Shown here in pieces: positions 10,512 through 62,972 of a DNA stretch of 64,000 nt. The translations under genes were made by a program, and so were the position numbers. Under the pieces are notes generated by a model, which saw nothing but the letters and a program-made list of their open reading frames with translations, did not search any database and was not told the DNA's origin. The first letter of the stretch is position 1, and each line of letters begins with the position of its first letter. This DNA comes from a bacterium (GTDB lineage Bacteria > Zhuqueibacterota > Zhuqueibacteria > Residuimicrobiales > Krinioviventaceae), in assembly GCA_963675755.2 (NCBI GenBank), contig CAXXMD010000001.1:224001-288000 (forward strand). Reading direction: 5' to 3'.

Positions 10512-10512
10512 T

Positions 10513-11292: not shown

Positions 11293-12074
11293 TTATGAGT
11301 AAACTATCCGTTATTATAATTACTTTAAATGAAGAGCGACATATTGGTGCCTGTCTAAAAAGTGTGAACTGGGCAGATGAGATTATTGTAGTAGATGCGA
11401 AAAGTACTGACCGTACGGTAGAAATTGCAAAACAATATACTGAAAAAGTATATGTTAATGAATGGTTGGGATACTCTGAAAATAAAAATATTGCTTTGAG
11501 TCATGCGAGTAATGAATGGGTACTTTGGCTGGATGCTGATGAAAGAGTAACTCCCGAATTGGCACAGGAAATTCAGGACTTGTTAAAAACGAATCCTGCT
11601 GAAAATGGATTCGAGATGTCAAGGCGAGCGTATTTTCTTGGTAAATGGATTAAACATTGCGGTTGGTATCCTGATTATGTGATGCGTTTGTTTCGCCGTG
11701 AAAAAGGGATTTTTAATGATAATCGTGTACATGAAGGTGTTCAGCTTGAAGGAAGTAAGAGGCGTTTGAATCATGATTTGTTACATTTTACAGATGATTC
11801 TCTTGAACATTATTTGTGGAAATTTAATCGATATACAACGCTTGCCGCAGAAGAACAGGTTAAACGTAAAAAAAGATCAGGATTGTTTAAAATTTTATTT
11901 AGACCATTGCATACATGGTTAAAAATGTATATATTTAAATTAGGATTTCTTGATGGAGTTCAGGGATTTATTTTGTGTTCATTGTCTGCCGGGTATGTGG
12001 CTGTTAAATATGCAAAGACCTGGGAATTGGATCGCAAACTAGAGAATGACAGTTCAGGAGGTAACAATAAATGA
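11289..12074 (+). CDS. Glycosyltransferase family 2 (WaaE/KdtX-like), paralog of the preceding gene
   Basis: ITLNEE, LDADE, CGWYPD, RVHE, GFLDG. Confidence 0.92.
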   Translation: MIMSKLSVIIITLNEERHIGACLKSVNWADEIIVVDAKSTDRTVEIAKQYTEKVYVNEWLGYSENKNIALSHASNEWVLWLDADERVTPELAQEIQDLLKTNPAENGFEMSRRAYFLGKWIKHCGWYPDYVMRLFRREKGIFNDNRVHEGVQLEGSKRRLNHDLLHFTDDSLEHYLWKFNRYTTLAAEEQVKRKKRSGLFKILFRPLHTWLKMYIFKLGFLDGVQGFILCSLSAGYVAVKYAKTWELDRKLENDSSGGNNK

Positions 12075-12412
12075 ATTTTTTACTCGAAGAAGTTAATGAT
12101 GTTAAAATATTACGCATTAAAGAAGAACGGCTGGATACTGCTATTGCACCGGATTTAAAAGCACAACTGCTTGTGTTGATTAAAGAAAAGGACAATAAAG
12201 TTCTTGTAGATCTTTCTGATACAAAATATGCGGACAGTTCCGGTTTGGGCGCAATATTATTAGGTCTAAGACAAGCTCGTGAAATTGGAGCCAAGTTTGC
12301 GGTATTTGGGGCCCAAAAACGCGTAGAGAGCTTGATAGAAATTGCTCAATTGGGTGAAATTTTAATTAATTATGAAAATGAGTTCAAAGCACTTGAACAG
12401 TTTGGAGCTTGA
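12071..12412 (+). CDS. STAS-domain anti-sigma factor antagonist
   Basis: VDLSDTKYADSSGLG phosphoacceptor motif. Confidence 0.88.
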   Translation: MNFLLEEVNDVKILRIKEERLDTAIAPDLKAQLLVLIKEKDNKVLVDLSDTKYADSSGLGAILLGLRQAREIGAKFAVFGAQKRVESLIEIAQLGEILINYENEFKALEQFGA

Positions 12413-12419
12413 TTCATTA

Positions 12420-12647
12420 TTAAACATATTCGTATGAAAAGCCGGCATGTTTAATATATTTATTAAAGAATTGATCCCTAGATGCTGATTTAACCAGTTT
12501 ACTATAAATATAGTCTGGTACTCCAAGGTATTGAATTGTTTCGTTGTTTGAAAATTCAACAGTCAGGGTAAATAGATCAGCATCATATTGAAATGTACTT
12601 ATTTTGGGGGCGTTGTTTTTTATCTTTTCAAACAGAATCTCGACCAT
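12420..12647 (-). CDS. KTSC domain protein
   Basis: YD....LTVEF....QYLGVP..Y..L....S...FFN..IK pattern; GGAG RBS. Confidence 0.85.
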   Translation of the reverse strand: MVEILFEKIKNNAPKISTFQYDADLFTLTVEFSNNETIQYLGVPDYIYSKLVKSASRDQFFNKYIKHAGFSYEYV

Positions 12648-12797
12648 GTGATTTCATCTCCATATTGATTCAATTAGAAAAACTGTGAAAATATTTCATG
12701 TTTGTGCATATATTGCACCAATTGAAAATATTCTACTATTGTTTTTATTGTAGTTAAGTGTTGTAAGTAGCTTTTTTTACTTTCTGAACAATGTAAA

Positions 12798-12813
12798 AGC
12801 AAAATTTATGCCT
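12798..12813 (-). promoter_or_regulatory. Putative sigma-54 (-24/-12) promoter for the KTSC gene
   Basis: Minus strand AGGCATAAATTTTGCT = GG-N10-GC with TTGC. Confidence 0.5.
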
Positions 12814-12870
12814 TGTGTTGCCCCATCCCAATGAAATAAATGTAATGAATTAAAAATTGTAATGCAAGAA

Positions 12871-12900
12871 ATTTCGCCCTGTCAATAAGCAGGGCGAAAT
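12871..12900 (-). terminator. Hairpin ending the trp operon
   Basis: ATTTCGCCCTG-N8-CAGGGCGAAAT just after the trpA stop. Confidence 0.7.
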
Positions 12901-12904
12901 AATA

Positions 12905-13687
12905 TTAGATGGTCGATTTGAGTATTTTTACAAATTCCCCAGCAAAGTCTGCTTTGTTTTCTACTTTTTCCAGTTCTGCTATTAACCAGCTGCCTATGAT
13001 AACACAATCTGCTATCTCGCTTGCTGCTTTGGCATCCTGATTTGATGCAATTCCAAACCCGATTGCTAATGGCATATCAGTACTTTTACGTACAGATTGT
13101 ATAATGTTTTTCAATTCATCGCTAGCGTGAAAACCTTTACCGGTTGTACCGTAATTGGACACACAATATAAAAAGCCCTGAGAGGCCTTGGTGATCTTTT
13201 GTGTACGTTCATTCTCAAGTTCAGGTGCCATAAGCTGTATGAGCGAAATATCATATTTTTTACACTGTTCCATAAGATCATGACTTTCTTCAAAAGGCAA
13301 GTCTGCCATGATCAAACCATCTCCACCTGCTGAATTTAAATCTTTTGTAAAAGCTTCAAGACCATATTGGTAAACAGGATTATAATAACCCATCAATACA
13401 ACAGGTGTATTGTGTGTTTTCCGAAAGGATTTGACCAGATCCAATATCTTTGAAATATTAACATTGTTTTTTAATGCTCTGTTTGAAGCCCGTTGAATAA
13501 CCGGCCCATCAGCAATGGGATCAGAAAAGGGGACTCCCAATTCTATACAGTCAACTCCATTGTCAGCCATTGCTTTCATAATTTCAAGTGTGGTATCAAT
13601 ATCAGGATCTCCAGCGGTTATGTAGAGTATTAATCCTTTTTCCTGATTTTGTTTTAATGTATTTAAATGGGTTTCCAATCTGTTCAT
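12905..13687 (-). CDS. trpA: Tryptophan synthase alpha chain
   Basis: ELGVPFSDPIADGPVIQ, GFGI; ATG at 13687 follows a GAGGGA RBS. Confidence 0.96.
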   Translation of the reverse strand: MNRLETHLNTLKQNQEKGLILYITAGDPDIDTTLEIMKAMADNGVDCIELGVPFSDPIADGPVIQRASNRALKNNVNISKILDLVKSFRKTHNTPVVLMGYYNPVYQYGLEAFTKDLNSAGGDGLIMADLPFEESHDLMEQCKKYDISLIQLMAPELENERTQKITKASQGFLYCVSNYGTTGKGFHASDELKNIIQSVRKSTDMPLAIGFGIASNQDAKAASEIADCVIIGSWLIAELEKVENKADFAGEFVKILKSTI

Positions 13688-40676: not shown

Positions 40677-42074
40677 TTATATTTCATACTTGAACTGCAT
40701 TGAAATAAAGGAAGGATCATTAAAGAATTCCCTTGATAACAACATTTGTCCCTGCAGATGATCAGATAATGTGAATTGTAATCCTAAACAATCAAAGTTT
40801 TTGGTTTCAATTTCATATGATAGTGAAATTACCTCTGAGTATATTGAATATGTGAATTTTGTACTATTGGTTAATTTAAACGAAAAACCGTATGATAATT
40901 GAATAACGCCATCATGTAATTTACTGTCACTGTATGAATTCCTTTCAGAGGTTGAATCCTGTTCCTGATAGAAATATTTGTATGTTCCAATTTCCTTACT
41001 TTTACGTAAATAATTGGTAATGACAAAAGTTAAATAATTATTCATTTTATTGAAAATATTAAATTCTACACCTGCACCAACATTGATATTGCGAATACTA
41101 TTATCTTTGGTTCTATGAGTGTATCTATAATCCTCATCGGTTTGGATTGTATCTTGCGGATATGTTCTATAAGTATCTTTGATCCATGTAGAGTAATAAT
41201 ATTCCTGATAATAATCCATTTTAAAATAGTTAAATATAAATCTGGATTTAGATTTTTCATTAATCTGCCAATCCAATTGTATACCAAGTTTATATGTTTC
41301 AAATGATAGTTCAGGGGATATATCAGTAGATAGATAATATCGCTCATGTATTGTGTAATAAAAGTCTTCAAAAGTGCTCAATGTATTCCAGTAATTATTA
41401 ATTGATTCTATTTGACGATATGCTTTTTTCTGAAATGTGGAAATACCCAACACTGGATTTAGTATGAGCTTTTCATTGATTTTGATTTTACCGCCCAACT
41501 TTCCCTTGAATTCTTTCGAGTTTCCTTCTATGTTCAGCAAAGGATCCAGTATTTTTTCATTACCGGTATAGTTTAATGTCCAGTATGTATAAGAGTTTGG
41601 ATTATCTCTTTCCAAATATTGGAATGAAATGCCAATTCCTATTCGGGTATTAATTTTTTTGTTTAACAATAAAAGACAACTGTTGTATTTATCATCCAAC
41701 CTCGGTTTTAACTTGGGTTCAGAGTAATAATCATACTCATTATATACAGATGCTACTTTTTTATCAGCCATTAAACCGACGTTCCAGGACTTAATCGGGA
41801 GGAATACATTTAAATGTTCACTGTCAATGTAGGTGTTTGATATGTCATTATATGTACCAATTTTATTATATCTTGCACCTGTAAAAATAGTAAGATGATC
41901 AAAATCCATCATGGCGGGATTCAAATATGAATCCATAATGGGATCGGCAATAACTCCGGTAATGCGGTCTCCAGCTTTACTTTGTAATTGGAGCGATATG
42001 GGAGTTTGGGCCCAAAGCATATTTACTGTTAATGCATACCATACTACCGTTAATAACCATAATCTGTTTCGCAT
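40677..42074 (-). CDS. Putative outer-membrane beta-barrel protein, Tyr-rich (paralog A)
   Basis: Signal peptide, DSYLNPAMM, alternating aromatic beta-strands, C-terminal MQFKYEI. Confidence 0.6.
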   Translation of the reverse strand: MRNRLWLLTVVWYALTVNMLWAQTPISLQLQSKAGDRITGVIADPIMDSYLNPAMMDFDHLTIFTGARYNKIGTYNDISNTYIDSEHLNVFLPIKSWNVGLMADKKVASVYNEYDYYSEPKLKPRLDDKYNSCLLLLNKKINTRIGIGISFQYLERDNPNSYTYWTLNYTGNEKILDPLLNIEGNSKEFKGKLGGKIKINEKLILNPVLGISTFQKKAYRQIESINNYWNTLSTFEDFYYTIHERYYLSTDISPELSFETYKLGIQLDWQINEKSKSRFIFNYFKMDYYQEYYYSTWIKDTYRTYPQDTIQTDEDYRYTHRTKDNSIRNINVGAGVEFNIFNKMNNYLTFVITNYLRKSKEIGTYKYFYQEQDSTSERNSYSDSKLHDGVIQLSYGFSFKLTNSTKFTYSIYSEVISLSYEIETKNFDCLGLQFTLSDHLQGQMLLSREFFNDPSFISMQFKYEI

Positions 42075-42140: not shown

Positions 42141-43511
42141 TTACAAGCATAATTCAAACTGCATGGCATAAAAAGATGGTGTATTATAAAACTCTCGGGT
42201 ACATATAAAATTACCAGCCAGGCTGTCTGTTATTGACATTTTAAAACCGATCCAGTCAATGTTTTTGGTTTTATATTTTGTTCCATTAATACTTGTAACA
42301 TTAATTGCATAAGTCAATATAAATTGAGGTAAAATCCTGAAATGTAATCCATATGATATTTGGTCCACATTTTTGCTATGGTTTGATTGCCCCGGTTGAT
42401 CTTCTGTATAAGGTCTATCTTTGAAAAAATTCATATCATATTTATAGATGGTTTGGATATCATAATTTGTGCTAGTTATGGATATATAATTATTTATTCG
42501 ATTAAGAATATTAAATTCAATTCCAATTCCTACTGCCATAGTTTGTATAGATTTGTTTTCATATCGTCTATAGTCAAAGAAACTGGAACTGTATTCAATA
42601 CTATCCTGGGGCATTATCGTTATTACGCTTGATCCTTCATGATGTAGATGTGCTGTTTCAGTATATTTTAGTTTATTATAGTTTCCCCAAAATCTTGTTT
42701 TAACGTATTTATGAATATTATAGCTTCCAATAACAGAAAACGTACTTTTAGGAAAACTAAAAGCAGGATAATTATCATTGTTGTATGATATTGAATCATA
42801 AAATTTTACATAAAAGTCATTATAATTATATATATAATTGCTTTTAGAACGAATGGTATATTGATTGTTATATAATTCCTTATTTACTAATGAATAGGAG
42901 AATGATGGGCAAATATCCAGCTTTTTCTTATATTTTATTTTGCCACCAATTGTGAGTTTTTTGATTCCCATGTCTCCCTGAATTTTGTAAAGCGGATCAA
43001 GAATGTACTCATTACCTGTATAGTTGTAAATAGTATTGTACTCTTTGTATGTGTTATTCCGCTTTTGGTATTCCAATGATATACCCAAGCTGTGAACTGT
43101 GCTCAACTTTTTTGATATCGAGAATACATATTTTTCATTTATATGATCCAGATTTGGATTTTCATAATAATAAGTATCAAAATATATTGTGTTTATAATT
43201 TTATCTGCCATAATACCAAAAGACCAGGATTTGTAAGGGATAAATATATATAGGTGTTGTTGATCAAAATATGATTGAGATATATTGTCAAGTTCTTCAA
43301 TCCTTGTAAAACGTGCACCGCTATATATTGTTGGCTTTATAAAATCCATCATGGCGGGATTGATATAAGAATCCGTAATAGGGTCAGCAATAGTGCCTAA
43401 TATTTTTTCACCGGCTTTGCTTTGTAGTTCGAGTGAAACCGGTTGCTGCGAATATACTGATTTACATACGAATAATAAAATTGTTAAAAGAAACCAAAAT
43501 TTATTTGGCAA
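42141..43511 (-). CDS. Putative outer-membrane beta-barrel protein, Tyr-rich (paralog B)
   Basis: Signal peptide, DSYINPAMM, clear similarity to 40677-42074. Confidence 0.6.
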   Translation of the reverse strand: MPNKFWFLLTILLFVCKSVYSQQPVSLELQSKAGEKILGTIADPITDSYINPAMMDFIKPTIYSGARFTRIEELDNISQSYFDQQHLYIFIPYKSWSFGIMADKIINTIYFDTYYYENPNLDHINEKYVFSISKKLSTVHSLGISLEYQKRNNTYKEYNTIYNYTGNEYILDPLYKIQGDMGIKKLTIGGKIKYKKKLDICPSFSYSLVNKELYNNQYTIRSKSNYIYNYNDFYVKFYDSISYNNDNYPAFSFPKSTFSVIGSYNIHKYVKTRFWGNYNKLKYTETAHLHHEGSSVITIMPQDSIEYSSSFFDYRRYENKSIQTMAVGIGIEFNILNRINNYISITSTNYDIQTIYKYDMNFFKDRPYTEDQPGQSNHSKNVDQISYGLHFRILPQFILTYAINVTSINGTKYKTKNIDWIGFKMSITDSLAGNFICTREFYNTPSFYAMQFELCL

Positions 43512-43650: not shown

Positions 43651-46035
43651 TTATAAATTGAACCGGTATGAGCATTTTAACAACAGTATTCTATCGTCAA
43701 AATCGAAACTACGGGATTCTCCGGTAAATGATTCGTCGGAACGTCCTTCGTTATAGGCGAGGTATAAAAAGCTGCCGGGACGGTATTCCCAACTGATGAG
43801 AGTGCTCAACAGGTATTGGTTTTCTGTGACTTTGTCTCCATACCAGGTGGTACCAAAATTACCCTGCATATGTAATCGAAAATAAAAATCTTTGTTTAAC
43901 ATAAAGGTGGTATAGGATGAAAACTGCCAGAATTCACCATCCTTTTTATCAATAGGATTGAATGTCTTTGTATATTCACCTTCAAGGGTGGAGAGGATGT
44001 GAGTGTGCAAACGGCCGGTCCCTGCCAGGGTTACGCTTTGCAGTGAGCCCACATGTTTTTGCTTAAAGTTGTAAAATGTACCACCATTTGCCCCCAGAAT
44101 CATTTCAATCCTTGCTCCCTTGTTTACGGGGCGTGAAGTGAAATTAGCTACCCAGGTGTTTTCTGTATAGATTTCGGTTATTTCACTGCGTTGGGCTTGT
44201 TGTAAACCAGCTACAAAGATCATTTCATTCATCAACTGCACTTCAAGTTCTTCTTCCGCACGCCAGTTTTGAAAATCCCGTTTGCCGGGGCCAATCATTG
44301 CTGTTCCATCTGTATATGAAAAAGCACTCTCTCCAAATTCGTCGTTAAATACAATATTTGGATTTTCTTCCAACCAGTCTGTTATATATCTGTCTGTAAA
44401 ATGATCATAGCTGATTTCACCTTCGGTAGAGAAGCTGATGCGGCGGAGGATCTTACGGTTCAGCCGCGGACCATAGCGAAAGCCCGCTTCGTATTCGGTC
44501 TCACCGCGATTGGCTTCTTTGCGCATATAGCCAATCCGATTGACCTCAAAATAGGGATCGGTATGTGTATAACCCAGCGACATGCCGAAATCGTCACCGG
44601 TTGTGGTGAGTTCTGCATAATATGCATTGCTGTTGTCAGTATGCTGTTCCGTTTGTCCGGTAGCAGCCTGAGCATCCAGTAAAATATTTTTTTTCACCAC
44701 AAACGATCCATCAATACCCAGTACGCGGTTGTATTCATTGTCGTATTCTTTGGTAGCTCCCAGAATGCCAATGTTGCTGGAATTGAAAACATCTTTTTTA
44801 ACTCGAAAAACTCCATAATTGGCTTCTTCTGAAGCGGTATTATCTATCTGACTGTGTGACATTGCAGATTCGCCGGTAAAACAGCTAATAGCACCAAATT
44901 CAAATCCTTTAGCCAGCTTGCCGGTCATTTTACCACCGCCAAGAATATCGCCCATGGCGCCAATACGTCGACTGTAAAACAGCTCAAGCGGGGTGTTGAA
45001 AATATTGGTCCTTTCCGTAAAAAAAGGACGAAGTTCCTGAAAACGGGTTGGGTAGCGGGTCAGATTGATTTCAACCACATCTGCATCTATTTGCGCAAAA
45101 TCAGGATTAACAGTCAAATCCGCTGTAATACTGGTAGAGGGACTGTAGCGAAGATCCAGTCCGTAATTTAGTTGCCCGCTTCTTGGGTCTGGCGCGGTCT
45201 GTTCCATTCCGGTAAGTACATAGGGGCGAATCTCAAAATTTCGTCCGGCATTTATGTTTTTGATCCCGGTGATGTGTCCCATTGTTGACATGCGTGTTGT
45301 CATATCCCATTCCCACAGGTGCGGTTTCCATTGCCCTCTTGAACCGTTTTTGGAAATATTACGCATCACATTAAAGCCAAAGATATGTTCTTCCAGGTCA
45401 TTAAAACGCAGGTTAAAGAAAGGGATTTTAATTTCCGCATACCAGCCTTTATCGTCAATAGTAGCTTCAGAATACCAGACCCCGTTCCAGTTTCGGTCGC
45501 GTTTGATATCATCATATCGCAATTCATCACCCTGAACGCCGGCGGGGGAGACATTAAATTTATATCCTGTTCGATGATCGTGAAACGTATCCAGAAACAG
45601 ATTCAGATTGTCCGGTACGTTTGAACCACGCGGAGTGACCAGATTGACAATTTTATCCGGATCGCTGTCCCAGCACCAAACTCCGATATAGAGATTATTT
45701 GCATCATATAAAACAGCGAATTCGGTTTCGTCTGACATGGGTACTAGTGGATAGGGTTCTTTTTCAAGCAGATCATCTTCGTGTTCAGCAAGGTGCCATT
45801 CTTTTTCATCCAGAACACCATCAATATTGATTTCTGCATCATCATTCAGCCTTAGGGCCTCAATGCTGTATAGTTCTATTAATGTATCATAAACAGCGGT
45901 CCGGACCGAGTCGATATAGGTCTGCTCAAAATATTTAGGATCAATGTCTCTCTGGCTGTAAAGATTGGAGGTGAAACAATAAAGTGCAAGTATGAGTGTT
46001 TGAAGGAATAGAATAACTGTTGTTTTAAACTGCAT
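43651..46035 (-). CDS. DUF5916 protein with N-terminal CBM9-like domain
   Basis: IDGVLDE..W, LDTFHD, GWYAEIKIPF, VNPDFAQIDAD, E.RPFF.E, LFYSRRIG, YRPGS; C-terminal YRFNL. Confidence 0.85.
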   Translation of the reverse strand: MQFKTTVILFLQTLILALYCFTSNLYSQRDIDPKYFEQTYIDSVRTAVYDTLIELYSIEALRLNDDAEINIDGVLDEKEWHLAEHEDDLLEKEPYPLVPMSDETEFAVLYDANNLYIGVWCWDSDPDKIVNLVTPRGSNVPDNLNLFLDTFHDHRTGYKFNVSPAGVQGDELRYDDIKRDRNWNGVWYSEATIDDKGWYAEIKIPFFNLRFNDLEEHIFGFNVMRNISKNGSRGQWKPHLWEWDMTTRMSTMGHITGIKNINAGRNFEIRPYVLTGMEQTAPDPRSGQLNYGLDLRYSPSTSITADLTVNPDFAQIDADVVEINLTRYPTRFQELRPFFTERTNIFNTPLELFYSRRIGAMGDILGGGKMTGKLAKGFEFGAISCFTGESAMSHSQIDNTASEEANYGVFRVKKDVFNSSNIGILGATKEYDNEYNRVLGIDGSFVVKKNILLDAQAATGQTEQHTDNSNAYYAELTTTGDDFGMSLGYTHTDPYFEVNRIGYMRKEANRGETEYEAGFRYGPRLNRKILRRISFSTEGEISYDHFTDRYITDWLEENPNIVFNDEFGESAFSYTDGTAMIGPGKRDFQNWRAEEELEVQLMNEMIFVAGLQQAQRSEITEIYTENTWVANFTSRPVNKGARIEMILGANGGTFYNFKQKHVGSLQSVTLAGTGRLHTHILSTLEGEYTKTFNPIDKKDGEFWQFSSYTTFMLNKDFYFRLHMQGNFGTTWYGDKVTENQYLLSTLISWEYRPGSFLYLAYNEGRSDESFTGESRSFDFDDRILLLKCSYRFNL

Positions 46036-50392: not shown

Positions 50393-52720
50393 TTATTTGC
50401 GCCAAAAATAAGTTAGTTTTAACATTAATGCGCGGTTTGAAACCAGGCCATCTGATGCGCCGAATAATCTGGTATCGTTATAAACAATATAGAAATCACT
50501 ACCGGGACGATATGTCCATCTAAACAACAAATTTGCAAGAGATATACGATCTCCATCATTGTTTAATTTATCATCATTAAACTGGATATATGCTTTCAGG
50601 TACATTTTGGTTGAAAAATAGTAATACAATCTGCAGCTAAATGTTTGTGCTTGAAAATCACCTTCAGGTAAACTGACATAATTAATATCAAAATTAAATT
50701 CAGCGTTCATTCTGTTAATCGATGTTGATACAATTTCCGGTGCCATAGAGAACCGGGTGCCTGTAAAATAATCACCATACGTCATTCTTAACCGACCAAA
50801 TAAATCCTTACTTTCATCAGTTTGCATGAATAAAAATGAACTCAAATCATCATAGGTTTCCATGGGGATAATAAAACCCGGGCGGACTTCCCAATCTTCG
50901 TCAATAAATTCTTTTTTATGGGCAAGTCCGGCATATATAAAACCACCATTTTGAAATCGCACTCCGATCATGGAGCTTATTTCAGCTTCCAGCATTTTAT
51001 CCTTTTGATCTGTCAGATATGACAGTTCGGTTTGCCATCTGTACTGACGAATTGATTTAAATTTATGAGAGCGGGGAGAAAAATCAATTTCACTAGCTGT
51101 ATTTTTGATGCCAGTTCGGCGTATGTAACCCATTTCTGCGTTGAAATTTTCCTGAATATTTAAATGTGAAAATGCAACATCAAGCAGATCAGAATCAAAT
51201 GCAGCACCCAGATTGCCGGCAAGATTATCTTCATCCATTTTATAGAATTCATCATCTTCGGTATAATCCGGACCCAGTGTTTGAGCGATAGAACCGTTAA
51301 TTTTAAATCTGTCTGTAATTGGGAAATTGCCATCGAATCCTACAGAACGATTGTAAAATGTACTGTCTATTTGTTCTTTATTAAGAAACATCATACCAAT
51401 ACTGGATCGTTTCAGGATATCACGACGCAGCCGAAAAACTGTAAAGTTGCTGGATTTGAAATTCTTCCATTCTCCTGTGCTTTCAGAAGCATTTTCATCA
51501 TCATTGTCATCGTCGTCATCATCCTCGTCGTAAATATTGATTTCATCTGTTAACACATTTATCAAACCCATTTGATATTTTCCTGATTTACCAAATAACT
51601 TTACACCATTATTTATGGGTTGCTGAAATCCGTCTTCAATACCAATTCTTCTGCTGTAAAAGAGCCGAATACCATTGCTTGGCCCTCTACCGCTGATACT
51701 TTGCCCACCAAAATTAAAGATTTCCGCTCCGTCAAGAAAGAAATCTCTTTTCTCCGGAAAGTAGAGAGAGAATCGCGTAAGGTTAACGCGCTCCTGGTCT
51801 GCCTCAACTTGTGCGAAATCCGTGTTCCAGGTAAAGTTCATGGAAATATTGGAGGTGATATTAAATTTTGACTCGAATCCCCAATTGCCTTTTGTTTCAA
51901 GATCAAAATTTGTATTGGCATCTTTGGTGGCGCTTGAGAGTAAATAAGGTTCAATTTCCAGATTTCCCCCGGCTTGCATACCACTCAAGCCGGTGAGGGT
52001 ACCCGCTTGTGAGACACGAAAAAATCCCATTCTGCCAGCATCACGAGGTACAAGCTGCCAAAAATCAGTTTCATTTTTGCGACGAATTTCTCTGGAAAAG
52101 TTAATTCCCCATGTTAAAGAATCACCTTTGCCAAATCGCAGGGTTTTCCATGGAATGGCAATTTCTGCGAACCAACCCTGATCATTAATTTGTGTTTCGC
52201 ATTCCCAAATTCCATTCCATTCAGAATTGTAACTGGTACCTTCATCCCCAAAGGTAGCATCTCTTCTACATCCATTTGGATTGATATTGAAATAGAACCC
52301 GTTCCTGCGATCATTAAATGTATCGAAAACTATTCTGAAATTATCGTCATTGTCAAGATGCGCATCTCTACGCATTTCACGAGCAATGATTTTATCAGGT
52401 TCTTTGTCAAAACATTTAATGGCTATATAAAGTTTGCTTTGATTATAAAGTAGTGCAATTTTTGTATCTTCTGTTGCAGGATCACCTACATCAGGTTCAC
52501 GTTGTATAAAGTTGCCAATAAATTGAATTTTCTCCCATTCTTCTTCATCTATTTTTCCATCAATATTTAAAAAAGATTGAATTTGTGTAGCTGAAATGTT
52601 TCGAAAGGGAATGGTAAAGTCTCTGTGTTCGTTTGACAAGTCTTGTGCAGCGTGTAATTGAAATAAAAATCCCCATAAAACTATGATTAGACATACTAAT
52701 CCGAATACTACCCGTTTCAT
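50393..52720 (-). CDS. DUF5916 protein with N-terminal CBM9-like domain
   Basis: IDGKIDE..W, GWFAEIAIPW, NTDFAQVEAD, FPEKRDFF, LFYSRRIG, YRPGSD; C-terminal LTYFW. Confidence 0.87.
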   Translation of the reverse strand: MKRVVFGLVCLIIVLWGFLFQLHAAQDLSNEHRDFTIPFRNISATQIQSFLNIDGKIDEEEWEKIQFIGNFIQREPDVGDPATEDTKIALLYNQSKLYIAIKCFDKEPDKIIAREMRRDAHLDNDDNFRIVFDTFNDRRNGFYFNINPNGCRRDATFGDEGTSYNSEWNGIWECETQINDQGWFAEIAIPWKTLRFGKGDSLTWGINFSREIRRKNETDFWQLVPRDAGRMGFFRVSQAGTLTGLSGMQAGGNLEIEPYLLSSATKDANTNFDLETKGNWGFESKFNITSNISMNFTWNTDFAQVEADQERVNLTRFSLYFPEKRDFFLDGAEIFNFGGQSISGRGPSNGIRLFYSRRIGIEDGFQQPINNGVKLFGKSGKYQMGLINVLTDEINIYDEDDDDDDNDDENASESTGEWKNFKSSNFTVFRLRRDILKRSSIGMMFLNKEQIDSTFYNRSVGFDGNFPITDRFKINGSIAQTLGPDYTEDDEFYKMDEDNLAGNLGAAFDSDLLDVAFSHLNIQENFNAEMGYIRRTGIKNTASEIDFSPRSHKFKSIRQYRWQTELSYLTDQKDKMLEAEISSMIGVRFQNGGFIYAGLAHKKEFIDEDWEVRPGFIIPMETYDDLSSFLFMQTDESKDLFGRLRMTYGDYFTGTRFSMAPEIVSTSINRMNAEFNFDINYVSLPEGDFQAQTFSCRLYYYFSTKMYLKAYIQFNDDKLNNDGDRISLANLLFRWTYRPGSDFYIVYNDTRLFGASDGLVSNRALMLKLTYFWRK

Positions 52721-54418: not shown

Positions 54419-54453
54419 AAGCCGGTTGCTTAAAAGTAACCGGCTTTTTTTTT
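54419..54453 (+). terminator. Intrinsic terminator
   Basis: AAGCCGGTTGCT-TAAA-AGTAACCGGC followed by a long T-run. Confidence 0.85.
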
Positions 54454-54587: not shown

Positions 54588-55601
54588 ATGAAAAGTATGC
54601 CCGTATATAAAAGACTGTTTGAGAATTATAAGCAGGCTATTCTTACCCAGCAATATGCTCCGGGTTCAAGGATTGATTCAATTAACAGCATGATGGATCG
54701 ACACCGCGTATCCAGAGAGACCGCCAAGTTGGTATTGAATCTTTTAGCACAGGAAAAGTTAATTGAAAAGATTGCTGGTAAAGGATCTTTTGTTGCTGAT
54801 CTGGGTCCCAGAAAACCGGTTTGGGGTGTGATTGTACCATTCTTGTCTGCTCAGATTGATGACCTGCTGCTACATTTAGGTAGATTTGCAAGTGATGCTG
54901 GTAACCGTCTTGAATGTTTTGTGGATTATAACAGTTGGCAGGAAGAAATTCGTTTAACCGGTACCCTGATCAATCAGGGATATGAAGCAGTCGTGGTTAT
55001 TCCAACTTTTGATGAGCGTAAAACTGCCTCATTTTATCAAAATCTCGTCTCTGGTGGAACTGTTGTAACTTTACTGGATCATACTATGGCGGGTTCTTAT
55101 TTTACCTATGCAATTCAGAGTTATGATCTGGGAGTAAAGCGTGCAGCGCAATATCTTGATAAAAGTGATGGAAAACTCGCATTTGTAAAAAATGCCATGT
55201 GGGCCGGACGTAATATGGTGCAGGAAGTAATGGAAGAAACGTTTAAAACTTTTAACGGCACTGAAAATACAAAGGTAGTGGATCGATTTGATATTATTAC
55301 CCCTGATTTTATAGAAAAAAATAATATAAAAGGATTGTTTTGCTGTGATGACATTGATGCAATCCGAATTGTTGGCAGATTAAAAGAAGCCGGATTAGTA
55401 TTTCCTGATGATATATCCATTGTCAGTTACGGGAATACAGATATGGCAAAATATTTTACCCCAAGCATTACTTCGGTTGATTGTCACAATGAACAATTGG
55501 CCCTGAAAACATCAGAAATCATAATAAACTATCGCAATGGAATTGATGTTTCAAAAAGTCAGTATGTCATACAACCAGAGCTTGTAGTACGTGAAACCTA
55601 A
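54588..55601 (+). CDS. GntR-HTH / LacI-type sensor hybrid regulator (AraR-like architecture)
   Basis: VSRETAK..L..L..E.LI....GKGSFV wHTH; periplasmic-binding-like C-terminus PDDISIVSY..PSITSV..PELVVRET. Confidence 0.88.
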   Translation: MKSMPVYKRLFENYKQAILTQQYAPGSRIDSINSMMDRHRVSRETAKLVLNLLAQEKLIEKIAGKGSFVADLGPRKPVWGVIVPFLSAQIDDLLLHLGRFASDAGNRLECFVDYNSWQEEIRLTGTLINQGYEAVVVIPTFDERKTASFYQNLVSGGTVVTLLDHTMAGSYFTYAIQSYDLGVKRAAQYLDKSDGKLAFVKNAMWAGRNMVQEVMEETFKTFNGTENTKVVDRFDIITPDFIEKNNIKGLFCCDDIDAIRIVGRLKEAGLVFPDDISIVSYGNTDMAKYFTPSITSVDCHNEQLALKTSEIIINYRNGIDVSKSQYVIQPELVVRET

Positions 55602-55613
55602 GCAGGTAAAAAA

Positions 55614-56975
55614 ATGAATAGTAGAGATCTTGTAATAAATGCGATACAAAGAAAGCCTATTGAGCGAGTACCCTGGGTACCTTTTGTGGGTGTGCATGGC
55701 GCCGCATTGCTGGGTACAGATGCAAAAACATATTTATATTCTCCGGAAATGATATTTCAGGGAGCCAAGCTTGCTGTAGAAAAATATCATGCTGATGGCC
55801 TGCCGGTTACCTTTGACCTGCAAATTGAACCGGAATGTCTGGGTTGTGAATTAAAATGGAACGATAAAAATCCACCTGCCGTTGTAACTCATCCATTGAC
55901 TGCCGGTGTCAAGTTGGAAGATTTAAAAGTACCGGGCCCTGATGATGGACGAATTCCAATTGTAATGGAAGCTGCTCGCAAGATTCGTAAAGAATTCCCG
56001 GATATTGCACTTTATGGATTGGTTGCAGGTCCTTTTACCCTGGCACTTCATTTATTGGGCACAGAAGTATTTATGAAAATGTTTGATTCTCCGGAATATG
56101 TTTATTCAGTCCTGGAATTCTGTTCGCAAGTTACCATGGCAATGACCGATTATTATTGTGATGCCGGATGTGATATTATTGCGGTTGTTGATCCCATGAC
56201 CAGCCAGATTGGTGAGGACCAATTCAGGCAATTTGTTACAAAACCTGCCACCATCGTATTTGATCATATTCGTGCCAAAGGAAAGTATTCGTCCTTTTTT
56301 GTTTGCGGGCATGCGCAGCATAATATTAAAGCCATGTGTGAATGTGGGCCGGATAATATTTCAGTTGATGAAAACGTTCCTCTGGATTATGTAAGAGATA
56401 TTGCCAAAGCTCACAATATCAGTATGGGGGGAAATTTAAAACTGACTGTAGTACTGTTGTTTGGTGATCAGGTTGATTCACAGCAGAATGCAATGCGCTG
56501 TATACAACAGAGTGAGGGAGAAGGCTTTATTCTTTCACCAGGCTGCGATTTGCCCTTTGATACGCCTCCTGAAAATTTGGCTGTGGTAGGAAATCTTGTC
56601 CGTGATCCTTATCAACAACAGGTTGTGCTCAGTATGGCTGCCCACGCCGAGGATGATGACCTTCCGGATTTGAGTAATTATGGTACTGATGGGCCAGTAC
56701 AGATTGATATCATAACACTGGACTCTGAATCTTGTCCGCCTTGTCAATATATGGTTGAAGCTGTGCAGCGGATTATTCCCGAATTTCATGGCAAAGCTGA
56801 ATGGCGCGAGCACCCCATAAAAGAACCGGCAGCAGTCAAATTTATGAAAGCGCTGGGAGTAAAGAATATACCCACTATATGTATTGATAGTAAACCGGCG
56901 TTTGTTTCCATCATTCCCAAAAGAGATGAGCTCATGCAGGCAATTCAAGATCGTATTGATGAGAAAAAGGTCTAG
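55614..56975 (+). CDS. URO-D/MtaA-family methylcobamide methyltransferase fused to a C-terminal thioredoxin-like domain
   Basis: RVPWVPFVG, GPFTLA, FFVCG, GGNL, ILSPGCDLP..TP.EN; C-terminal CPPCQYM and GVKNIPTICI (cis-Pro). Confidence 0.82.
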   Translation: MNSRDLVINAIQRKPIERVPWVPFVGVHGAALLGTDAKTYLYSPEMIFQGAKLAVEKYHADGLPVTFDLQIEPECLGCELKWNDKNPPAVVTHPLTAGVKLEDLKVPGPDDGRIPIVMEAARKIRKEFPDIALYGLVAGPFTLALHLLGTEVFMKMFDSPEYVYSVLEFCSQVTMAMTDYYCDAGCDIIAVVDPMTSQIGEDQFRQFVTKPATIVFDHIRAKGKYSSFFVCGHAQHNIKAMCECGPDNISVDENVPLDYVRDIAKAHNISMGGNLKLTVVLLFGDQVDSQQNAMRCIQQSEGEGFILSPGCDLPFDTPPENLAVVGNLVRDPYQQQVVLSMAAHAEDDDLPDLSNYGTDGPVQIDIITLDSESCPPCQYMVEAVQRIIPEFHGKAEWREHPIKEPAAVKFMKALGVKNIPTICIDSKPAFVSIIPKRDELMQAIQDRIDEKKV

Positions 56976-56982
56976 GTAGAGC

Positions 56983-57894
56983 TTGGCAGATTCAATTAAA
57001 ATACCATTCTTTCTGGTTACCGGATTCCTTGGCAGTGGAAAAACCAGCTTTTTAAAGCGCTTTCTTTCCATATATTCAAAACATTACCGGATTGCCATTG
57101 TGCAAAATGAATTTTCATCAGTTAATATTGATGGAAAAGAATTGCATCATATCGACAAATCGGTCAAGATTGTAGAGATGAATAACGGTTCTGTTTTTTG
57201 TGTTTGCATGATCTCGGATTTCAAACAAACGTTGCATGATCTTGTAGATCATAAAGTTTTTGATGCAATTATTGTTGAAGCAACGGGCTTGGCTGACCCT
57301 ATTGCGGTTACACAGGTTTTTCATGATCCTTTTCTTGCAGAAAATTTGTATCTTGCACATATCTGGACGATAGTGGATGCCGAAAATTATTCTAAAATTG
57401 AAAAGATAAAAAGTGCGGAACGACAAATTCGTTTTGCAGATACTATCATCTTGAACAAAATGGACCGATTTACAGGAGATGTAGAGGCTCTGACTCTAAA
57501 CGTGGCCCAAATGAACAAGACTGCAAATCTGGAATTAGCGGAATTTAGTAATGTATCCCTGCCAGATGATTTATCCTCTATACTTGCGGTTCCTGTTAAA
57601 GATAAGAAATTGAGTGGTATACCTGCTAAACGTCCGGCAGTTGATACCATTGTAATCAAAGATGAAAAAAGTATTACCCGGCAACAATTTGAAATGTTTA
57701 TCAACAAGATTAAAGGGAATATATATAGATTAAAAGGTTTTTTGAAAATGGATGGAAATACTTTTCTGATTCAAAAAACATTTGGACAAATTGAATATAA
57801 TCAATTACATTACAATAATAATACTGAACTGATTATTATAGGCACTGATCTGGATAATGAAAAGGTTCAGCAGTTATGGCAAGATCCACTCTGA
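56983..57894 (+). CDS. CobW/COG0523-family GTPase
   Basis: TGFLGSGKT, VQNEF, GSVFCVC, EATGLADP, LNKMD, YRLKG. Confidence 0.88.
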   Translation: MADSIKIPFFLVTGFLGSGKTSFLKRFLSIYSKHYRIAIVQNEFSSVNIDGKELHHIDKSVKIVEMNNGSVFCVCMISDFKQTLHDLVDHKVFDAIIVEATGLADPIAVTQVFHDPFLAENLYLAHIWTIVDAENYSKIEKIKSAERQIRFADTIILNKMDRFTGDVEALTLNVAQMNKTANLELAEFSNVSLPDDLSSILAVPVKDKKLSGIPAKRPAVDTIVIKDEKSITRQQFEMFINKIKGNIYRLKGFLKMDGNTFLIQKTFGQIEYNQLHYNNNTELIIIGTDLDNEKVQQLWQDPL

Positions 57895-57934: not shown

Positions 57935-58600
57935 ATGAGTGAAATGATTGAAATTTTGGCAACTTGTATTGAACGTGGTAAAGTAGACAAAAACTCTCCA
58001 TTTCCTCCGGATTTAAAAGATCAGGATGGTGCGGATGAATATGCAAAAAAGGCAGTAGATGATGGATTGGCACCAGATGATATATTAAAGGCCTGTATGA
58101 TTGGTATGCAGCGAATTGGTGAAAAATTCAGCAAAAACCAGGCTTTTGTGCCTGAATTATTAATGTCAGCCAAAGCGATGAATGCTGTTATGGTACATTT
58201 GCGTCCATTTTTTCAAAGCGGCAGTGTTAAACACAAAGGTACTTTTATTGTGGGTACTGTTACAGGTGATCTGCACGATATTGGTAAGAATCTGGTAGCC
58301 ATGGTTATAGAAGGTAATGGCTGGCAGGTTGTTGATTTGGGTGTTGATGTTTCTGCTGATAAATTTGTAAATGCTGTTAAAGAATATCCCAATTGTGTTG
58401 TAGGACTTAGTGCGTTACTTACAACGACCATGGTAAATATGGAATCCATTATTCAGGCAATTAAAAATGAAAATCCTGATGTACCGGTTATTGTTGGCGG
58501 AGCACCATTGTCTCAGGATTTTGCCAATAAAATCAATGCAGATGGTTATGCTTCCGATCCACATAATGCTGTTCAGTTAATTTCTAAATATGCTGCCTAA
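57935..58600 (+). CDS. Corrinoid (B12-binding) protein
   Basis: Cap domain FVPELLMSAKAM; GDLHDIGKNLV (DxHxxG), DLGVDV, GLSALLTTT, VGGAP. Confidence 0.93.
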   Translation: MSEMIEILATCIERGKVDKNSPFPPDLKDQDGADEYAKKAVDDGLAPDDILKACMIGMQRIGEKFSKNQAFVPELLMSAKAMNAVMVHLRPFFQSGSVKHKGTFIVGTVTGDLHDIGKNLVAMVIEGNGWQVVDLGVDVSADKFVNAVKEYPNCVVGLSALLTTTMVNMESIIQAIKNENPDVPVIVGGAPLSQDFANKINADGYASDPHNAVQLISKYAA

Positions 58601-58613
58601 TCTCTTCCCTTTT

Positions 58614-58641
58614 GCCCCTGTAACAAACAGGGGCTTTTTTT
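58614..58641 (+). terminator. Intrinsic terminator
   Basis: GCCCCTG-TAACAAA-CAGGGGC followed by a T-run. Confidence 0.85.
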
Positions 58642-61060: not shown

Positions 61061-61112
61061 GCTGTTTTGATAAACGATACATTTCACTCTTTACCTGCTG
61101 CAAGAGTTGGTT

Positions 61113-62972
61113 ATGAAAAAATTATTTCTGTTAATACCATTTCTTCTTTTGTCTTGTCATAAACCTGTTGAAAATATAAATTTCAAATCCGCTTGTATTG
61201 AAACTTTGACAGTTTTTACTGACACCTTGATTGATTTACAAATTAAAAATCCCAATAGTCCTGATTATGGTGCAATACAGTGTCATGCTTGTGATGTGCT
61301 GCATACTAGAGCAGCTGAAGCTGTCTTTCCCTTTGTTGTGCGTTACCAGGAAACCGGGGATGAAAAGTGGCTCGATGCGGCTATCCGTTTGGGGAATTGG
61401 CTTATTCAACAGCAGCAATCCGATGGTTCCTGGAAAGAAACACCGGAAGAGTGGACCGGTACAACAACCGATCAGTTGTTAATGCTGCTGAAAGCATGGC
61501 CCGTATTAAAAACAAAATTAAATCCTGATGAAATAACAGCCTGGCAGCAGTCAATGATAGACGCAGCAGGTTTTTTGGTAAAGGAAATGAGTCCTGATTT
61601 TGCCAGTATAAATTATTGTGCAACAACAACAGCAACACTTGCATTGATGAATGAGCATTTTCCCGATGCACGCTATCTTGATAAAGCCGGACAATTGGCT
61701 TTTCAGGTTTTATCTAAAATGAATGATGATGGATTTATTTGTGCCGAGGGAGACCGTGTTTATGGTGTTAAATATGGAGCGGATGTTGGATATGAAATAG
61801 ACATGTCGTTGTGGGGTCTTGGCATGTATGCCAAAATCACAGGTGATACCCTCACAGAAAGTTATGTTACAGAATCTTTAAAGAACCATCTTGCTTTTGT
61901 ATATCCTAATGGAGCTATTGACGGCTCATGGGGGATACGTTCAAACAAATGGACAACTTTTGGCAGTGAAACTGCAGATGGCTGCCAGGTGTTATTTGCA
62001 ATGTTTGCGGACAAAGATCCACGTTATATACGTGCTGCTTTTCTTAATTTACAATATTTGAATGGTATGATACACAACGGGCTGTTAGGATACGGCCCCC
62101 AATATTTTGAATTGTTCGATAAACCCCCTTGCATATATCCTACTTTTGTCAGATCCAAAAATCTGGCAATGGCTGCGAGTATGGATCTAGATGTTGTCGA
62201 TATTTCATCCAGACTTTATTCTGAACAACCCGGATTTTTTAAATTTTACCCGTCAGTAGATGTTGCTTTGGTTCGTACAAAAGAATTTATGGCTACAGTA
62301 ACTTCATATGGATATGAAGAATTAAAAAAACGAAATAAAAGCAAGTATATGCATCGTCCAACAGGTGGGTCCATATCCAATCTTTGGGTTAAAGATCATG
62401 GCTTTTTGCAGTTATCCAGCCAGACAGAATATCATCGCTGGGAGCCCATGCATTTTCCTGAAATTGGAGATGTATTGCCATTAACCTCCCGGATTGAGTT
62501 TACCAATGAGAATGGGTATTTTACCAATTTGTATGAATATGATGCAAGGATGGATGTAGATAAAGATAGCAATAGTATTACAATAGCTGGAGAGTTGAAA
62601 AATAACATGTTGCTGCAGGGTGGTGTTGCCTACAAGTGGCAATATTCATTTTCTGATAATGCTATTGTGAAAAATGTACATTTACGATACCACGATGGAA
62701 CAAGAAATGTGAAAATTATTGAACCGGTAATTTTGATTGATGGATTAACTATTGAACAAAAAGATGAAAAAACTGTGAATATTAAAGGACCCCATAAAAC
62801 TATACAGCTCAAAGTACTTGAAGGCTCTGTAACACTCGAGAGTGGTGTTGATAAAGAAAAGTACTGGGCTGCTTTTCCATCTGTAAAAGCATATCCACTG
62901 GTATTAAAGGTAAATTGTCCAAAGGATCAATTCAGACAATCTGTTCGTTATGCGATTCAGGTTTTGCACTAG
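61113..62972 (+). CDS. Lipoprotein of unknown function; predicted alpha/alpha toroid plus beta-rich C-terminus
   Basis: Lipobox LLSC; Y.ETGDEKWLDAA.RLG.WL..QQ.DGSW helical-barrel repeats; CHAC motif. Confidence 0.65.
   Translation: MKKLFLLIPFLLLSCHKPVENINFKSACIETLTVFTDTLIDLQIKNPNSPDYGAIQCHACDVLHTRAAEAVFPFVVRYQETGDEKWLDAAIRLGNWLIQQQQSDGSWKETPEEWTGTTTDQLLMLLKAWPVLKTKLNPDEITAWQQSMIDAAGFLVKEMSPDFASINYCATTTATLALMNEHFPDARYLDKAGQLAFQVLSKMNDDGFICAEGDRVYGVKYGADVGYEIDMSLWGLGMYAKITGDTLTESYVTESLKNHLAFVYPNGAIDGSWGIRSNKWTTFGSETADGCQVLFAMFADKDPRYIRAAFLNLQYLNGMIHNGLLGYGPQYFELFDKPPCIYPTFVRSKNLAMAASMDLDVVDISSRLYSEQPGFFKFYPSVDVALVRTKEFMATVTSYGYEELKKRNKSKYMHRPTGGSISNLWVKDHGFLQLSSQTEYHRWEPMHFPEIGDVLPLTSRIEFTNENGYFTNLYEYDARMDVDKDSNSITIAGELKNNMLLQGGVAYKWQYSFSDNAIVKNVHLRYHDGTRNVKIIEPVILIDGLTIEQKDEKTVNIKGPHKTIQLKVLEGSVTLESGVDKEKYWAAFPSVKAYPLVLKVNCPKDQFRQSVRYAIQVLH

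Follow-up and report, generated by a model that had tools for sequence, protein, structure and literature searches.

A putative MtaA-like corrinoid methyltransferase that combines a Phe-Cys-Cys site and a CxxC thioredoxin-like domain and is paired with a COG0523 GTPase

What would an MtaA-type enzyme do whose zinc site lacks its His and whose C-terminus carries a dithiol domain? The question is raised by a gene in a 64,000-nucleotide stretch of DNA (positions 224,001 to 288,000 of contig CAXXMD010000001.1, assembly GCA_963675755.2; this whole stretch is referred to as the window) from a bacterium of the Krinioviventaceae in the phylum Zhuqueibacterota. Its product belongs to a real and strongly conserved family, which we predict to consist of corrinoid methyltransferases of the MtaA superfamily that have Phe-Cys-Cys as their site, a CxxC thioredoxin fused to the barrel, and a COG0523-type protein as obligate partner. 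We consider it quite likely that, at its core, the system is a methyltransferase module that depends on a corrinoid and has a GTPase of its own. The fuller reading, which we put forward tentatively and with a confidence just short of even, is that the enzyme is a substrate-specific, optional part of a corrinoid hub that works independently of folate, that the GTPase serves its Cys2 metal site, and that its CxxC domain is redox-active. The gene and the parts of its product (hereafter the enzyme) are located in the window as follows:

55614..56975, forward strand: open reading frame (ORF) of the enzyme, a uroporphyrinogen decarboxylase (URO-D)/MtaA-like barrel plus a CxxC thioredoxin domain; single open frame of 453 amino acids (aa)
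55620..56633, forward strand: URO-D (beta/alpha)8 barrel, residues 3-340 (PF01208 over residues 3-330; match to 4AY7_A over model residues 1-334)
56298..56312, forward strand: F-V-C-G-H, residues 229-233; Phe229 at the position of the zinc-ligand His of MtaA, Cys231 retained
56538..56549, forward strand: P-G-C-D, residues 309-312; Cys311 stands where the zinc site of MtaA has its second Cys
56634..56696, forward strand: inter-domain linker, residues 341-361, the sole low-confidence stretch of the AlphaFold2 model
56697..56969, forward strand: predicted thioredoxin-fold domain, residues 362-452 (Pfam, NCBIfam, AlphaFold2 and alignment to 1NHO)
56733..56744, forward strand: C-P-P-C, residues 374-377, part of T-L-D-S-x-x-C-x-P-C-Q-Y-M, the signature of the family
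56865..56876, forward strand: N-I-P-T, residues 418-421, including cis-Pro420 and followed by Cys423

The strong Pfam match of residues 3-330 to URO-D (PF01208, E 9.7e-63) and the database names of the relatives ('uroporphyrinogen decarboxylase (family protein)', besides 'MtaA/CmuA family methyltransferase' and 'thioredoxin family protein') would suggest a genuine uroporphyrinogen decarboxylase joined to an unrelated redox domain. Against hemE (TIGR01464), however, the enzyme scores only 80.8 bits, far below the equivalog cut-off of 302.95, which a separate hemE gene in the same genome passes with 422.5 bits, and a corrinoid protein gene is its conserved neighbor. In a Foldseek search with the AlphaFold2 model, the best solved fold was MtaA (4AY7; TM 0.90-0.91 on target, root-mean-square deviation (rmsd) 2.0 Å), and VIA alignment to 4AY7_A gave a Z of 43.3 (rmsd 1.7 Å over 324 aligned residues with 24% identity), as compared with 35-37 for true decarboxylases. 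Because MtaA is the closer fold and the genome has a hemE of its own, the barrel is most probably MtaA-like and not a true uroporphyrinogen decarboxylase, as the initial annotation of this stretch had also held. We give the decarboxylase a vanishingly small chance, and the public naming of this family as 'uroporphyrinogen decarboxylase' appears to be wrong.

By sequence, too, MtaA of Methanosarcina mazei is the best match of the enzyme among solved proteins. In the phmmer alignment to it (4AY7, E 4.6e-26), 'FFVCGH' is aligned to 'LHICGN' and 'SPGCDL' is paired with 'APGCGI', so the His of the His-Cys-Cys zinc triad (H-x-C ... C) of the MtaA/CmuA family corresponds to Phe229, and Cys231 and Cys311 are retained. 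The initial annotation had noticed this replacement, together with a C-terminal domain of about 100 aa carrying CPPC and the NIPT cis-Pro, and had proposed to look for FFVCG and CxxC in homologs; all of this was borne out, and the refuting condition that the annotation had named, a CxxC lost from homologs, did not arise. Among 231 aligned family members, Phe229, Cys231, Cys311 and the CxxC residues Cys374 and Cys377 are each conserved in 230, Asp312, His146, Cys78, Tyr379 and cis-Pro420 in all 231, His28 in 230, His400 in 229 and Cys423 in 228. This Phe229/Cys pattern is far beyond chance. The His of F-V-C-G-H does less well as a substitute ligand: His233 is present in only 183 of the 231 members (else Tyr in 30, Gln in 11, Asp in 4, Asn in 2 and Arg in 1), and as a relocated zinc ligand it was rejected for this variability. 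His28 and His146 do not look compensatory either, as they are conserved also in relatives that still have H-x-C. The single member without the pattern, P0129 (455 aa), lacks Phe229, Cys231, Cys311 and both CxxC Cys while retaining the two-domain architecture; a Cys-less clade around it was considered and rejected, since it is a singleton whose next relative is 41% identical. A second divergent representative, P0169, has lost Cys231 and Cys377.

The family is large, with at least 5114 proteins at E <= 1e-10 in a word-indexed search (8000 candidates examined) and at least 575 confirmed loci in the genome collection; an exhaustive search of 50%-identity representatives gave 2969 matches at E <= 0.001 and 115 at 1e-30. 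Its carriers are polysaccharide-degrading bacteria from sediments, guts and digesters, and belong to Bacteroidota, Planctomycetota, KSB1, Lentisphaerota and others; cultured ones include Mariniphaga anaerophila DSM 26910, Maribellus sediminis and Crateriforma conspicua. The 119 best-listed relatives (entry of the window excluded) have lengths of 535-550 aa, are 56-62% identical, and all match both PF13192 and PF01208; they are longer than the window protein by a second, degenerate thioredoxin-like domain, which the latter does not have. An independent metagenome sample yielded 60 complete fused genes, all with F-x-C-G, G-C-D and C-x-x-C (8 outside the strict pattern were confirmed by eye), 31 of which encode one thioredoxin domain only. 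Because of these 31 genes, and because a genome of the same genus (G001) encodes a short form 95% identical to the window protein, the second thioredoxin domain is probably dispensable, and the window copy is best described as a trimmed, single-thioredoxin form. F-x-C-G itself is a clade trait, common to unfused relatives of 333-430 aa, and more distant ones have H-x-C. A metagenome scan with an alignment of the unfused relatives returned only loci 40-49% identical to the query, namely fused-family members or genes truncated by the end of a contig. Matches that seemed to represent the thioredoxin domain as a split gene (187 aa and similar) were rejected as fragments, since they begin with the Met within '..NMKDYG..' or in the barrel sequence.

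Also in line with a dispensable second domain is a quick tree, in which three separate places are taken by the window protein, by Planctomycetota forms of 452 aa, and by a large clade whose members have 448-461 aa; its outgroup is not monophyletic and its rooting unreliable, and no claims on rooting or donors are drawn from it. As a separate observation, the window protein is only 54-60% identical to the copies in other genera of its family (as compared with the 95% within the genus), and its tree neighbors are Planctomycetota sequences; horizontal acquisition of the gene is possible.

How the added domain relates to the barrel was examined on an AlphaFold2 model built from 94 aligned relatives (mean predicted local distance difference test (pLDDT) 94.8, predicted template modeling score (pTM) 0.90). 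Residues 362-452 form a beta-alpha-beta-alpha-beta-beta-alpha arrangement in which CPPC begins the first helix and the cis-Pro precedes strand 3. This is the topology of thioredoxins, and we predict the residues to be a minimal thioredoxin fold. Among solved structures, the small thioredoxin 1NHO is the best sequence match to this domain (E 2.6e-4), and its closest named NCBIfam family is the UxxC selenoprotein thioredoxin NF047660 (34.6 bits, cut-off 105). The placement of CxPC at the helix start, the cis-Pro and this nearest family speak for a thioredoxin of the redox type. A linker of about 20 residues separates the domains (mean pLDDT 65 over the block 341-350). With about 100 of the 453 residues loosely placed, the pTM is estimated to reach at most ~0.79; as the observed 0.90 exceeds this bound, the thioredoxin domain is predicted to be docked on the barrel, confidently so in the model. 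A wide VIA search found no solved chain covering both domains, although the thioredoxin part was barely probed by that search.

The genes around the enzyme give further indications of its role. They lie in the window as follows:

54419..54446, forward strand: terminator-like hairpin after the upstream GFO/IDH/MocA gene, 12-pair stem with 6 GC pairs and a T-run; upstream operon boundary
54588..55601, forward strand: regulator with a GntR-type helix-turn-helix and a periplasmic-binding-protein (LacI-like sugar-binding) domain, 337 aa (PF00392 31.6 bits, PF13377 58 bits)
56983..57894, forward strand: COG0523/CobW-like G3E GTPase, 303 aa, TTG start 7 nucleotides (nt) past the stop of the enzyme gene
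57935..58600, forward strand: corrinoid protein with B12-binding_2 cap and B12-binding domain, 221 aa, D-L-H-D-I-G at nt 58268-58285
58614..58634, forward strand: terminator-like hairpin before a glycoside hydrolase family 92 (GH92) gene, 8-pair stem with 6 GC pairs and T7; ends the four-gene unit

The regulator gene ends 12 nt upstream of the enzyme gene. Because of the strong terminator-like hairpins on either side, regulator, enzyme, GTPase and corrinoid protein most likely constitute a four-gene unit of their own, apart from the flanking GH92 genes. The GTPase contains both expected domains (PF02492, 136.5 bits; PF07683 (CobW_C), 44.2 bits) and a P-loop GFLGSGKT at nt 57022-57045, and its CxCC metal motif is reduced to F-C-V-C (nt 57196-57207; F-C-x-C in the family, with Cys73 and Cys75 in 60/60). 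For a predicted complex of enzyme, GTPase and a zinc ion, the median of the interface score ipSAE was 0.56, as compared with 0.00 for the best of 3 controls, with at least 72% of contacts in agreement among runs and a partner pLDDT of at least 73. Of the calibration set, 116/157 solved complexes and 2/215 mismatched pairs attained the mark, and scores of 0.60 or less comprised only 18 of the 157 solved complexes and both mismatches. The prediction thus weakly favors a direct enzyme-GTPase complex.

The pairing is also seen in the distribution among genomes. Of 41 related genomes (which are kin, so that the counts characterize this sample only and do not amount to a statistical test), 29 contain the enzyme and 28 the GTPase, with both present in 28 and neither in 12; the one mismatch is G032 (89% complete), where the enzyme gene, 530 nt from a contig end, has no GTPase. 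The corrinoid protein and a homologue of the homocysteine methyltransferase (mostly a ~300-aa frame) are present in 41/41, and a short His-Cys-Cys URO-D in 25/41. The enzyme and GTPase are therefore an obligate pair, and this pair is an optional addition to a core of carrier plus homocysteine methyltransferase.

These counts also bear on the possibility that the pair is a maintenance machine, in which, with the barrel docked on the corrinoid protein, the cobamide is reduced, de-alkylated or loaded by the dithiol domain and GTPase, in the manner of RamA/RACE activases or MeaB-type chaperones. The pair is indeed the gene set tied most tightly to the carrier gene, and no RamA/RACE gene was seen at the loci examined (no Ram/RACE cluster was present among the conserved neighbors of 81 loci, and the whole genome of the window was not searched for one). 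G3E GTPases serve as B12 chaperones in other systems, and dithiols drive MetH reactivation in vitro. But the Co(II)/Co(I) couple is far from thioredoxin-type potentials, and a MetH-activation-like protein is already present at many loci and in this genome. The corrinoid protein also occurs without the pair in 12 of the 41 genomes, 9 of them at least 89% complete, which means that the carrier can do without the pair. Since these genomes keep the carrier without it, we favor a substrate-specific role over general carrier maintenance, and consider the maintenance machine rather improbable.

Neighboring genes were clustered by ORF over 81 loci (80 genome loci plus the window; many on short contigs). 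Beside the enzyme gene were a CobW-like GTPase at 65/81 loci, the corrinoid protein at 53/81, a ~294-aa homocysteine S-methyltransferase (PF02574) at 45/81, an AraC regulator at 31/81, and a MetH-activation-domain-like protein (PF02965) at 20/81; the regulator type of the window (cluster c23) occurs at 4/81. Short URO-D paralogues in the operons of the relatives have the canonical H-I-C-G ... G-C-E motif. A second set of counts comes from 27 metagenome loci with enough flank (from loci L100-L179), 15 of the two-thioredoxin and 12 of the one-thioredoxin form. The GTPase accompanies 25 of them (15/15 and 10/12 respectively) and the corrinoid protein 23 (13/15 and 10/12), while the MetH-activation-like protein is found at 6/15 and 9/12, and the homocysteine methyltransferase at 12/15 and 0/12, a hint at a link between homocysteine S-methyltransferase and the second thioredoxin-like domain. 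The cognate corrinoid protein that marks the MtaA/CmuA family is thus at hand in both sets, and in the operon of the window. The operon partners of the relatives (corrinoid protein, homocysteine S-methyltransferase and MetH-activation-like protein) point to homocysteine as the methyl acceptor of the hub, and because of them, methyl transfer without coenzyme M, which the initial annotation had suggested, is to be expected.

The genome of the window holds the other parts of such a hub. It contains 12 matches to the URO-D family and an 804-aa MetH, and the corrinoid protein of the window (57935-58600) is its sole stand-alone corrinoid protein. A second hub locus is located on another contig (G000:C2:21862-24500; positions 9863-12503 of locus L092), directly following a GH29 fucosidase and a cupin protein. 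It encodes a 343-aa short His-Cys-Cys URO-D, a 300-aa homocysteine S-methyltransferase (PF02574; G000:C2:22896-23795) and a 235-aa MetH-activation-like protein (PF02965), with no corrinoid protein there. As the only stand-alone carrier in the genome is that of the window, the enzymes of the second locus would have to use it, and the operon in the window is predicted to encode the carrier that all hub enzymes of the genome must share. A stand-alone corrinoid protein and a stand-alone homocysteine S-methyltransferase are present in one genome, as in a split MetH-like hub. The pterin-binding family PF00809 is matched only twice in the genome, by part of the 804-aa MetH and by a 290-aa frame, and not at all in the operon. 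Further URO-D paralogues of the genome, with H-x-C ... H-N motifs, are located in glycan loci.

From these observations we propose how the enzyme may work. It would act on the corrinoid protein from the second gene downstream, and thereby plug into a folate-independent, 'split MetH-like' hub, the parts of which would be a stand-alone corrinoid carrier, a methionine-making stand-alone homocysteine S-methyltransferase, a MetH-activation-like protein, and several URO-D-type methyltransferases distributed across glycan loci. Cys231 and Cys311, without the His, may form a soft, coordinatively open Cys2 metal site, and the methyl group would pass between the carrier and a substrate held at this site, which the COG0523 GTPase may load or maintain in its under-coordinated state. 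The CxxC domain may serve as an in-cis dithiol that keeps the exposed Cys pair reduced, or that processes a substrate or product of the disulfide or persulfide type. The analysis shows the fold, the motifs with their conservation, the operon, the pairing with the GTPase and the hub parts of this genome, whereas the identity of the metal, the direction of methyl flow, a substrate of the thiol or thioether type and the redox role are all inferred. According to the accessible text of Kountz and Balskus (PMC10418091), the S/Se methyltransferases of the superfamily have His-Cys-Cys, and its O-methyltransferases have carboxylates in place of Cys; as both Cys are kept in the enzyme, this ligand rule makes us lean toward a sulfur-type substrate.

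Several points weigh against this reading. The enzyme stays below the cut-offs of all NCBIfam families, including the top match mtaA_cmuA (TIGR01463, 156.6 bits vs. 235.4), MtaA (NF040654, 130.9 bits, cut-off 400) and MtbA (NF041608, 118.5 bits, cut-off 600), and the Thioredoxin_3 match (PF13192, residues 365-444) reaches 21.6 bits, below the gathering score of 24.8. The score of the enzyme-GTPase complex falls in a weak band, in which a prediction is more often wrong than right unless it was likely beforehand. The operon of the window does not include a homocysteine methyltransferase gene, and in the metagenome loci this gene stands beside the two-thioredoxin form only. Unfused F-x-C-G relatives (P0125, P0127, P0132, P0139 and others) imply that such barrels can dispense with a thioredoxin in cis. 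The Cys pair need not bind a metal at all, because some URO-D methyltransferases are zinc-free, such as CdmB as described in the accessible text of PMC13222342.

The conserved cysteines can also be read, along the lines of the initial annotation, as a built-in acceptor or ligand, whereby the tethered CxxC enters the barrel to complete a Cys4 metal site with Cys231 and Cys311, and its thiolate acts as methyl acceptor or relay, Ada-like or as a protein-borne 'coenzyme M'. The loss of the His would leave the metal site short of ligands, the linker is flexible, and the four Cys are conserved jointly in 230/231, with P0129 having lost all four along with Phe229, and P0169 having lost one of each pair. 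Moreover, single-thioredoxin loci are often without a second methyltransferase gene, as seen for the homocysteine methyltransferase (0/12). This co-loss, however, amounts to two sequences, one of them a singleton, and unfused F-x-C-G barrels exist. A protein S-methyl-Cys would also require a further acceptor. Su and co-workers reportedly found in 2007 that a conserved cis-Pro adjoining CxxC, as the enzyme has it, disfavors metal binding by thioredoxin-fold thiolates, and a domain placed over the funnel of the zinc site would be in the way of the corrinoid domain, which must cover the same funnel, and could act only transiently. For these two reasons we favor a dynamic redox role of CxxC over a permanent ligand role, and regard the built-in acceptor as unlikely, to much the same degree as the maintenance machine. 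A related idea, which we likewise rate as improbable, is that the two orphaned barrel Cys and the tethered CxxC make up an inter-domain thiolate site assembled by the GTPase, with protein-borne or thioredoxin-delivered sulfur derived from sulfide or persulfide as the methyl acceptor. If true, this would be a bacterial, coenzyme-M-free way to discharge the methyl group of a corrinoid hub, with methanethiol as the product or S-methyl-cysteine as a relay, for instance.

The glycan-related surroundings of the operon raise yet another possibility, that of a donor-side O-demethylase (MT1), which would pass methyl groups from O-methylated sugars freed by the neighboring glycoside hydrolases to the corrinoid protein and, via the homocysteine methyltransferase, to methionine, as an oxygen-free sugar demethylation. 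In the window, the operon lies among GH92 genes, DUF5916/CBM9 proteins and a sulfatase, and its regulator has a periplasmic-binding fold of the sugar-binding type; GH120, GFO-type oxidoreductases and GntP permeases are present at some related loci, and the second hub locus follows the GH29 fucosidase. GH92, however, is a neighbor at only 1/81 genome loci, and its linkage to the enzyme was rejected as unconserved; nor does any conserved carbohydrate gene stand beside the pair. Both Cys are kept in the enzyme, whereas by the ligand rule above they would be replaced by carboxylates in an O-methyltransferase (PMC10418091). The H-x-C ... H-N paralogues directly within glycan loci are better candidates for such a reaction, and an O-demethylase would leave the thioredoxin and the GTPase unexplained. 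We consider it unlikely on balance, though less so than the built-in acceptor, and retain the hub methyltransferase with a GTPase-served Cys2 site as our tentative reading.

The contig of the window carries two more paralogues of the URO-D family some 30 kb downstream (locus L093, G000:C1:312000-330000, at 7028-8173 and 12454-13488), and one of them has an H-S-C-G ... H-N motif. Their neighbors are genes for a 3-keto-disaccharide hydrolase, a major facilitator superfamily (MFS) transporter, a GFO-type oxidoreductase, and pectate-lyase/GH76-like proteins. We regard the two paralogues as candidate sugar-directed methyltransferases.

Among known systems, MtaA, MtbA and MtsA of Methanosarcina (4AY7/4AY8) resemble the enzyme in the barrel, both zinc-site Cys, and a cognate corrinoid protein encoded alongside. 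The enzyme differs from them in its Phe for His (230/231), in the fused CxxC thioredoxin, to which most relatives add the second degenerate one, in its obligate COG0523 partner, and in the occurrence of its family in phyla not known to use coenzyme M (those listed above). Its thioredoxin domain is similar to small archaeal thioredoxins and glutaredoxin-like proteins (1NHO, MJ0307 family, Thioredoxin_3), which have a minimal fold of ~85 residues with CxxC at the first helix and a cis-Pro, and is set apart from generic thioredoxins by being fused and by an extended invariant surface (TLDSxxCxPCQYM, W397, E399, H400 and NIPTICID). Work by Price and co-workers of 2018 is said to belong to the literature on the split methionine synthase, or MtgC-MtgD hub, of Rhodobacterales. 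As described in the accessible part of Mausz et al. (2025, PMC12478193), that hub likewise has a stand-alone cobalamin-binding protein that serves both in making methionine and in removing methyl groups from another substrate, but it employs folate-type bidirectional and glycine-betaine methyltransferases, in contrast to the URO-D-type enzymes and the operon without a pterin-binding module found here.

The type 1 mlp clusters (Mlp1-3, corrinoid protein and Ram/RACE; PMC10418091) are comparable in that they combine bacterial MtaA-like proteins and a corrinoid protein without a folate methyltransferase, and, from their Cys-rich ligands, an S/Se-type substrate was proposed for them. As far as the accessible text goes, their Mlps have His-Cys-Cys, are mostly from Firmicutes and rely on a Ram/RACE activase, whereas the systems described here have Phe-Cys-Cys, a GTPase and MetH-derived parts; the same text makes no mention of CobW or of a thioredoxin fusion. 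CobW-like GTPases co-localized with corrinoid-dependent methyltransferase genes were described as COG0523 subfamily 13 (Haas et al., 2009, PMC2770081), to which we liken the GTPase by description. It differs from this subfamily in having CxC in place of the canonical CxCC, and the part of that study available does not mention a strict one-to-one pairing of such GTPases with a barrel fused to thioredoxin. The zinc-free URO-D MT1s, i.e., the chloromethane methyltransferase CdmB (PMC13222342) and O-demethylase MT1s, methylate Co(I) without a His-Cys-Cys zinc site; according to the accessible text, CdmB has an aromatic, metal-free cavity, as opposed to the two invariant Cys and the metallochaperone-type partner of the enzyme family. 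Our literature searches, the coverage of which did not extend to subscription journals, found no paper on the fused family.

Should the enzyme indeed serve a folate-independent corrinoid hub as a methyltransferase, it would be relevant to the ways in which anaerobic and microaerobic heterotrophs salvage methyl groups or get rid of them, to the question why so many of these organisms need corrinoids, and to the role of COG0523 GTPases beside corrinoid enzymes. The Phe-for-His replacement together with the fused dithiol would be a clean departure from the zinc-thiolate mechanism common to MtaA, MetE, MetH and BHMT.

Elsewhere in the window, the sulfatase and GH92 are flanked by two large proteins with DUF5916 (43651-46035 and 50393-52720, reverse strand), one of which also has a CBM9-like domain, and the glycan-degradation island around them is not organized as a SusC/SusD locus. 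The 621-aa ORF at 61107-62972 (forward strand), which follows the GH92 gene and the terminator-like hairpin belonging to it, matches no Pfam family. The same applies to two adjacent ORFs of 465 and 456 aa (40677-42074 and 42141-43511, reverse strand), which occupy the stretch of lowest GC content in the window (0.31-0.32 vs. ~0.38).

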